Source of the DNA: a virus
Lineage: Duplodnaviria; Heunggongvirae; Uroviricota; Caudoviricetes
Direction: 5' to 3' (one strand)
Length of the DNA stretch: 40,848 nt
IMG/VR virus record: IMGVR_UViG_2778261067_000009
Shown here: positions 34,591 through 34,863 of the stretch, one piece after another
Position numbering within the stretch: the first letter of the stretch is position 1
How the letters are laid out: the number at the start of each line of letters is the position of its first letter
Program-made: the position numbers and the translations under genes
The notes under the pieces: model-generated
What the model was told of the DNA's origin: nothing
The model's input: the letters and a program-made list of their open reading frames with translations, nothing else
Database searches by the model: none

Positions 34591-34863
34591 ATGGTACATG
34601 ACCGCATAGCGGAGGAACTGGAGGCGAAAGGCTTTTACCGGAGGGCGGCGGCGCGATGGGGTGAAGTCATGCAGCTGGTGGAGACAGACAAGGAACGGCA
34701 TAACATCACGATGCGACGGCTGGAATGTTCAAGGAAGGCACAGAGGGCACCGGAGCCGCCGGATAATTTCGGAGACCTGAAAAAGGCAGTCGATCGCACT
34801 TATGCCGAAATGGGTATAGATGGTGCTGGTGATGAAATATGGCGCAATTACCAGGACAGCTAA
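34591..34863 (+). CDS. PerC-family transcriptional regulator homologue (Pch-like)
   Basis: ...RIAEELEAKGFYRRAAARWGEVM... matches the conserved PerC/Pch N-terminal motif as recalled; GAGGGGG RBS. Confidence 0.55.
   Translation: MVHDRIAEELEAKGFYRRAAARWGEVMQLVETDKERHNITMRRLECSRKAQRAPEPPDNFGDLKKAVDRTYAEMGIDGAGDEIWRNYQDS

Follow-up and report, generated by a model that had tools for sequence, protein, structure and literature searches.

PchA, PchB and PchC and the PerC protein of the EPEC EAF plasmid are small helical proteins carried by mobile elements, and they belong to one Pfam family with the common core L10, E11, G14, R17-R18-A19, R22-W23 and C46. The group 1 proteins are 104 aa long, end in a basic C-terminal tail and are defined by their close relationship and by a context that is either the per operon or a lambdoid prophage late region near T3SS effector genes. 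Group 1 Pch are needed for full expression of ler and the LEE, whereas PchD and PchE are reported to have little or no effect (PMC6265319, PMC11773190, citing Iyoda & Watanabe 2004, Porter 2005). The group 1 proteins activate LEE1 only through relief of the silencing by H-NS/StpA/Hha (PMC4764244).

In Sakai, the gene after ssb at the roxA/phoQ site is annotated as pchE (ECs_1588) and is part of Sp7, which is OI-51/CP-933C in EDL933 (PMC3378721) and corresponds to the capsid-forming phage-inducible chromosomal island (cf-PICI) EcCIEDL933. When over-expressed, PchE represses csgD, curli, biofilm, eae, lpfA1 and stpA and strongly induces flhDC/fliC and motility (PMC6265319, PMC7369912). Deletions of pchE made little difference to the phenotypes examined, namely biofilm under non-inducing conditions (PMC6265319, PMC7369912). 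In OI-51-type islands it is rgdR, also a motility regulator, that has been demonstrated to promote type III secretion (T3S) and the LEE (PMC3378721). pchE, the OI-51/Sp7-type PICIs in which it resides and the PerC alleles of E. coli PICIs (PMC6092414, PMC11773190) have all been published previously.

Two further systems are relevant for comparison. EcCIMP1_025 of the PICI EcCIMP1 is likewise a PICI-borne accessory gene of the PerC family that is not a LEE activator; this gene, from a commensal strain, strongly represses a LEE1-lux fusion in C. rodentium, an effect not reported for PchE (PMC11773190). The ANR family (Aar, Rnr; NF033650) consists of small helical proteins from enterobacterial mobile elements with the signature A-x3-E-x7-A-x3-W (PMC4983702), and their over-expression, like that of PchE, lowers adherence. 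ANR proteins bind H-NS, Ler and AraC-type activators (PMC4983702, PMC10148876).

Here, a stretch of 40,848 nucleotides from a Caudoviricetes record of IMG/VR (IMGVR_UViG_2778261067_000009), referred to as the window, was analysed around an open reading frame at 34591-34863. An earlier note, made from the letters alone, had taken this frame for a PerC-family regulator carried as cargo by a mobilisable satellite, and had suggested that it might spread a virulence-regulatory input, by implication to the LEE, or act in the regulation of the element itself.

The PerC-family gene and its assignment to pchE

The frame starts with an ATG at 34591-34593 and ends with a TAA at 34861-34863, giving 90 codons plus the stop. 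Its ribosome-binding site shares bases with the ssb stop codon (34578-34580), and this short spacing fits co-translation of the two genes in one operon. A longer frame of 130 aa, started by a GTG at 34471, overlaps ssb, and since its extra part is without family-matching residues the ATG start is preferred. The identical interval in the O157:H7 strain PV15-279 (L001, 7001-7273) has the RefSeq product 'PerC family transcriptional regulator', and a single residue (N38 versus H38) separates the window protein from that allele. The dN/dS ratio was 0.23-0.34 between pchE alleles, compared with about 0.05 for the adjoining ssb, which indicates purifying selection on a maintained coding sequence, with less constraint than on ssb. 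By megablast, pchE was found in 721 of 5426 complete E. coli genomes, and E. coli genomes numbering in the hundreds have this frame annotated in RefSeq. A 24.8-kb query from the window had no exact counterpart among the complete RefSeq genomes, the best of which covered 91% of it at 94.8% identity or 88% at 96.9%.

The window protein matched the Pfam PerC family (PF06069), scoring 145.8 bits where the cut-off is 22.6 (E=4.8e-43), residues 1-89 being aligned with positions 1-89 of the 90 in the model. Going by these scores, the match cannot be of chance origin, and PHROG 994 was also matched over the full length (E=8e-47). Residues E11, G14, R17, R18, A19, R22, W23 and C46, which occupy invariant columns in an alignment of 56 sequences, are all present, and the N-terminal motif quoted in the earlier note, EELEAKGFYRRAAARWGEVM, corresponds to residues 8-27. 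In size and setting the protein is also typical of the family, whose members have about 90-105 aa, with 90 aa, an all-helical AlphaFold2 (AF2) model and a place on an enterobacterial mobile element, here a PICI. The homology, the motif and the exact interval had thus been recognised correctly.

The alignment to PerC and the Pch proteins that had been proposed in the earlier note gave identities of 90% to Sakai PchE (ECs_1588), 63% to a PerC-like protein from a different, P0154-type lineage of E. coli PICIs, 42% to Sakai PchA, 39% to an EPEC-type PerC encoded 3' of perA/perB on an EAF-like plasmid and 36% to Sakai PchD. Nine residues distinguish the window allele from Sakai PchE, which is also 90 aa long and located at the roxA/phoQ site. 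In both islands the gene lies 3' of a small orf (ECs1586 in Sakai, its homologue in the window) and of ssb, and is followed by the same hairpin and by orf74, the whole forming a 1.3-kb block that is 93.9% identical. From its sequence and location, the frame at 34591-34863 is assigned to group 3 of the Pch proteins as an allele of pchE.

The close relationship and the genomic contexts that define group 1 are absent from this locus. The Sakai pchA gene adjoins the lysis genes of the lambda-like prophage Sp4, another PchABC-type gene follows lysis genes and stands beside the effector gene espS, and the EPEC-type perC follows perA and perB. In Sakai SpLE1 (L028, 32944-35147), pchD (ECs_1388) was found directly 3' of ibrA, which encodes a PAPS-reductase-like protein, and ybdM, outside any PICI; the three Pch groups consequently have three different genomic contexts.

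An exhaustive HMMER search returned only 100 of 1.84 billion cluster representatives at E <=0.001, and the named matches and the retrieved loci were from Enterobacterales throughout. Plasmids and phages, both lambdoid and virulent, also encode N-terminal PerC-like domains. In the E. coli loci L031-L034 (6018-7288 and 11051-11353), genes for an SSB and a ProQ/FinO-like protein are followed by the PerC gene whose product is 63% identical to the window protein, and a second PerC-family gene is located 4 kb 3' of the first in this PICI lineage. On an IncI-type plasmid, a ProQ/FinO-family gene was seen about 1.7 kb 5' of a PerC gene.

The carrier island and the orf-ssb-pchE operon

phoQ forms the end of the window, and roxA adjoins the start of the island. 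The gene order is int, alpA, an Icd-like region, rgdR, the helicase gene, a small orf, ssb, pchE and two small orfs, and in the 3' part the genes for the MCP-like, gpD-like and Nu1-like terS proteins and a last small orf (Table 1). The RefSeq product name of the replication gene is 'helicase RepA family protein'. Neither tail nor lysis genes were detected in the island by gene content and Pfam. The integrase and alpA genes, the rep gene with a putative iteron origin, the packaging-redirection module, the size of about 11 kb and the direct repeats are those of classical Gram-negative PICIs. Classical E. coli PICIs, EcCICFT073 among them, have this layout (PMC6092414; bioRxiv 10.1101/2022.09.08.507074), and the island is collinear with the RgdR-containing island of the CFT073-like strain clone D i2. 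On this gene content the carrier is classified as a classical, EcCICFT073-type PICI. A 21-bp direct repeat, CGGTGTAGTTAATGGTGTAGT, flanks it at 28423-28443 and 39281-39301, inside the borders annotated for Sp7 in Sakai (approximately 28290-39380 in the window), and is a candidate att core.

Table 1. Features of the satellite and of the pchE region, in window coordinates.
Feature	Position	Strand	Basis or remark
Whole satellite, classical PICI at the roxA/phoQ site	28290..39380	+	
int	28470-29699		
alpA	29984-30253		
rgdR homologue (DUF4222, 99 aa)	32025..32324	+	Pfam DUF4222; 80% identical to Sakai ECs1581
Replication protein (RepA-type helicase, AAA_25)	32321..33721	+	Pfam AAA_25 E=2.4e-43
Five AAAGTGAGR iteron-like repeats between rep and operon	33721..33910	.	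Overlap the operon promoter region
Small ORF (ECs1586 homologue, PHROG 1231), first cistron of the orf-ssb-pchE operon	33922..34173	+	
PICI ssb, directly 5' of pchE and co-linear	34170..34580	+	Pfam SSB E=1.7e-16
Ribosome-binding site GAGGGGG, 5 nt 5' of the pchE ATG	34579..34585	+	Sequence read
pchE allele, PerC-family, group 3 Pch, 90 aa	34591..34863	+	Pfam PF06069; identity to Sakai PchE
Terminator-like hairpin AGCCGGAG-N5-CGGCT plus T run, 7 nt 3' of the pchE stop	34870..34891	+	
orf74 (PHROG 1957, function unknown), cassette between pchE and the packaging module	34990..35214	+	Weak DUF7189 match
Second hairpin copy, 3' of orf74	35234..35255	+	Homologous to the one directly after ssb in the PerC-less PICI L029
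MCP-E-like, lambda-like major capsid homologue	35672-36727		
gpD-like, lambda-like decoration protein homologue	36739-37074		
Nu1-like terS, small terminase	37707-38249		

The Sakai island differs in kind. It is of the capsid-forming type and, instead of the RepA-type helicase and the lambda-like MCP, gpD and Nu1 homologues of the window, encodes a DUF927 primase together with an HK97 capsid, protease, portal and TerL. The two islands share the int-alpA segment (97.7% identical), rgdR (77%), the orf-ssb-pchE-orf74 block (33920-35255, 93.9%) and the last orf, while the rep gene and the entire packaging module are unrelated. The segment 30751-31334, from alpA to the conserved early genes, was unlike the O157:H7 versions of the island, in which the Icd-like gene is an annotated pseudogene; a small YlcI/YnfO-like ORF lies just upstream, on the minus strand (30754-30933). 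The late region of a lambdoid prophage occupies window positions 1-23000, about 5 kb from the PICI. Compared with their PICI homologues (35672-38249), its major capsid protein (7195-8193) is 46% identical, its gpD (6817-7110) 36% and its Nu1 (1235-1564) 49%. The neighbouring prophage is a possible helper or interference target.

Gene spacing and ribosome-binding site in the window are compatible with an orf-ssb-pchE operon, placed between the replication and the packaging module. In strain PA20, 5'-RACE showed a polycistronic pchE transcript that starts 10 nt 5' of ECs1586 (PMC7369912). Carried over to the window, this start would fall at about 33912, inside the iteron region, which suggests that Rep binding could influence the operon. 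Against an expectation of 0.53, the whole window holds six copies of the repeat AAAGTGAGR. Five cluster in this region, and the cluster is probably the origin of the PICI. Sites fitting the sigma-70 consensus were no more numerous in 33600-35700 than after shuffling, and the transcript start known from PA20 coincided with none of them. The hairpin after pchE is present three times in the island, after pchE, after orf74 and after orf137 (37506-37527), and such repeats may mark joints where small gene cassettes come or go.

Linkage of pchE to ssb

The 944-bp orf-ssb-pchE block was covered to at least 80% in 718 genomes, compared with 720 for pchE alone, so pchE, where present, is essentially always attached to ssb. 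At least part of the orf-ssb module was found in 1695 genomes, many of the matches ending inside ssb. Adjacency of SSB and PerC genes recurs in satellites of E. albertii, Kluyvera, Shimwellia, Enterobacter, Lelliottia and Pantoea.

Inspection of two collinear PICIs, L029 and L030 (from 'clone D i2' and LH09-a), showed no PerC gene. In both, the terminator-like hairpin seen after pchE comes straight after ssb, ahead of the packaging genes. The extra sequence of the window island, 34581-35233, consists of two cassettes of a gene plus a hairpin, pchE and orf74. The latter accompanies pchE in some PICIs, as in Sakai Sp7, and is missing from a cf-PICI at tqsA that does carry pchE. Since collinear PICIs without PerC exist, pchE is facultative cargo and the idea of a backbone gene was rejected. 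Judged from these alignments, pchE is a moron-like cassette, made up of the gene and its terminator hairpin, that moves with the ssb module. The satellite described in the earlier note is present, with int, alpA, rep, ssb, capsid and decoration homologues and a Nu1-like small terminase, and to call the gene cargo is defensible, with the addition that this cargo travels with ssb.

Function of the window PchE

The reading that best accommodates these observations, to which we give a probability of about 60%, is that the frame is a group 3 pchE allele, last in a three-gene operon of a roxA/phoQ PICI, and acts as a facultative, ssb-linked cassette that retunes host global regulation rather than activating LEE1. 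On the phenotypes of the Sakai/PA20 allele, PchE would act on host global regulation, lowering csgD, curli and adhesins and raising flhDC and flagella. It would probably do so either by altering nucleoprotein complexes of the H-NS/StpA type or by binding other regulators, in analogy with the anti-silencing by PchA and with the ANR proteins. Its targets (csgD, flhDC, stpA and adhesin genes) would then be different from those of PchA.

The AF2 model of the window protein has four helices with a pLDDT of 87.5, and the protein is predicted to be a small four-helix, TPR-like protein without a recognisable DNA-binding fold. A sequence search of the PDB gave only chance matches, to PACSIN F-BAR domains at E of at least 0.1, and a Foldseek search of the PDB with the model gave none below E=1.

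Several observations count against this host-directed reading. Every PchE phenotype stems from plasmid over-expression (PMC6265319, PMC7369912), and the allele in the published work is of the Sakai/PA20 type, from which the window allele differs at 9/90 residues. A physical interaction of PchA with H-NS was undetected, according to an unpublished observation quoted in PMC4764244, which speaks against taking a protein-protein mechanism as settled for the PerC family. Over-expression of pchE also raised ler, only about or above 2-fold and with eae down (PMC7369912), which may mean a small LEE input.

A role in the life cycle of the satellite was considered as an alternative. PchE would in that case counter the H-NS silencing of the PICI, control the packaging operon or manipulate the helper, and the effects on the host would be secondary. 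The position of pchE is suggestive in this respect, as the last cistron of the ssb operon, with the promoter within the iteron region beside rep, and directly 5' of the packaging module. The SSB-PerC link moreover survives the exchange of rep and packaging modules and is seen in classical PICIs, in cf-PICIs and in satellites of other genera, and N-terminal PerC-like domains are widespread in plasmids and in phage proteins, some of them annotated as transcriptional activators. However, L029 and L030 do without the gene, and the region upstream of the packaging operon (35264-35800) is 87% identical in the PerC-less L029 and so does not co-vary with PerC. pchE also co-occurs with two unrelated packaging modules, and its expression falls, rather than rises, under the SOS-inducing SMX-TM (PMC7369912). 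Our literature search found no paper testing PerC in PICI induction or transfer, and PMC11773190 treats the PICI PerC-like gene as accessory. A life-cycle role is accordingly rated as rather unlikely, and the notion of a late-operon activator in particular is weakened by the conserved upstream region and the two packaging modules.

A related proposal starts from the adjacency of SSB and PerC from Escherichia to Pantoea, across classical and capsid-forming PICIs with exchanged modules. PchE-clade proteins might be functional partners of the satellite ssb operon, in counter-silencing of the satellite DNA or in the manipulation of the helper or the host nucleoid on induction, and not virulence cargo. 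If so, the effects on curli, flagella and the LEE would be by-products. We regard this as unlikely, and the reason for the persistent tie of a PerC-like gene to the satellite ssb operon is a modest question in its own right.

A function as an ANR-type anti-activator, of the kind suggested for EcCIMP1_025 and directed at H-NS or Ler and/or an activator of the AraC/XylS family, was also weighed. Residues 7-52 of the window protein align in register with positions 9-54 of NF033650 (E=0.0015), a weak match that is common to PerC, PchA-type proteins, PchD and Sakai PchE. Its 18.3 bits, however, are below the cut-off of 32, whereas a true ANR protein from L023 scores 51.7 bits. By hhalign, the PerC profile matched a bona fide ANR with E=3.4e-4, with a probability of 38%. 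The ANR signature is present in the window protein as A7, E11, A19 and W23; of the ANR residues A10, E14, A22, W26, A29, W43 and R47, which lie on three helices, the first four align and the C-terminal ones are not clearly matched. The predicted TPR-like fold would suit protein binding, EcCIMP1_025 represses LEE1, and PchE represses adhesins as ANR proteins do. With 90 aa and an additional fourth helix, on the other hand, PchE is longer than the ANR proteins (4.4-9.5 kDa). Pfam scans of the 16 ORFs of the island detected no AraC-family domain, leaving no such partner gene nearby, and the identity to EcCIMP1_025 is about 40% (PMC11773190). An ANR-type function is thus doubtful as a separate explanation, and in mechanism it overlaps with the retuning of host regulation that we favour, for which the weak ANR similarity of the PerC/Pch proteins counts as well.

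A horizontally spread LEE activator, which in LEE-positive hosts would turn on the promoter of ler (LEE1) as PerC or PchA/B/C do, is very improbable: the shared Pfam family and invariant N-terminal residues, the near alleles common in LEE-positive O157:H7 and O145 strains, the rise of ler on over-expression and the statement that some PICI-coded PerC homologues activate the LEE (PMC6092414) are set against the low identity to PchA and PerC, the missing C-terminal extension, the different context, the simultaneous fall of eae, the near relatives in Pantoea, Kluyvera and Enterobacter, genera not known to carry the LEE, and the reported absence of LEE activation by PchD and PchE (PMC6265319, PMC11773190). 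By analogy with the published data for the 90%-identical Sakai/PA20 allele, the window PchE most likely does not activate LEE1. Of the interpretation in the earlier note, the PerC family, the satellite and the cargo status hold, and the implied LEE activation is not supported, in view of the divergence, the context and the published assays, groups 2 (PchD) and 3 (PchE) being described as having little or no LEE effect.

The rgdR gene of the window has an intact R20-G21-D22 motif. As the documented activator on such islands, rgdR has a better claim than pchE to be this satellite's virulence-regulatory input, and equating PerC with a LEE activator at the level of annotation would be wrong for the PchE subgroup.

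Twelve remoter PerC-like loci from other species (34-43% identity) were located on assorted islands, with fimbrial, adhesin/toxin-like and ImpA-like neighbours according to ORF translations. In L023 (2697-3241) and L024 (Citrobacter meridianamericanus), a bona fide ANR gene lies directly 5' of, and overlaps, a PerC-like gene, a tandem arrangement that may bear on the relation between the two weakly related families.
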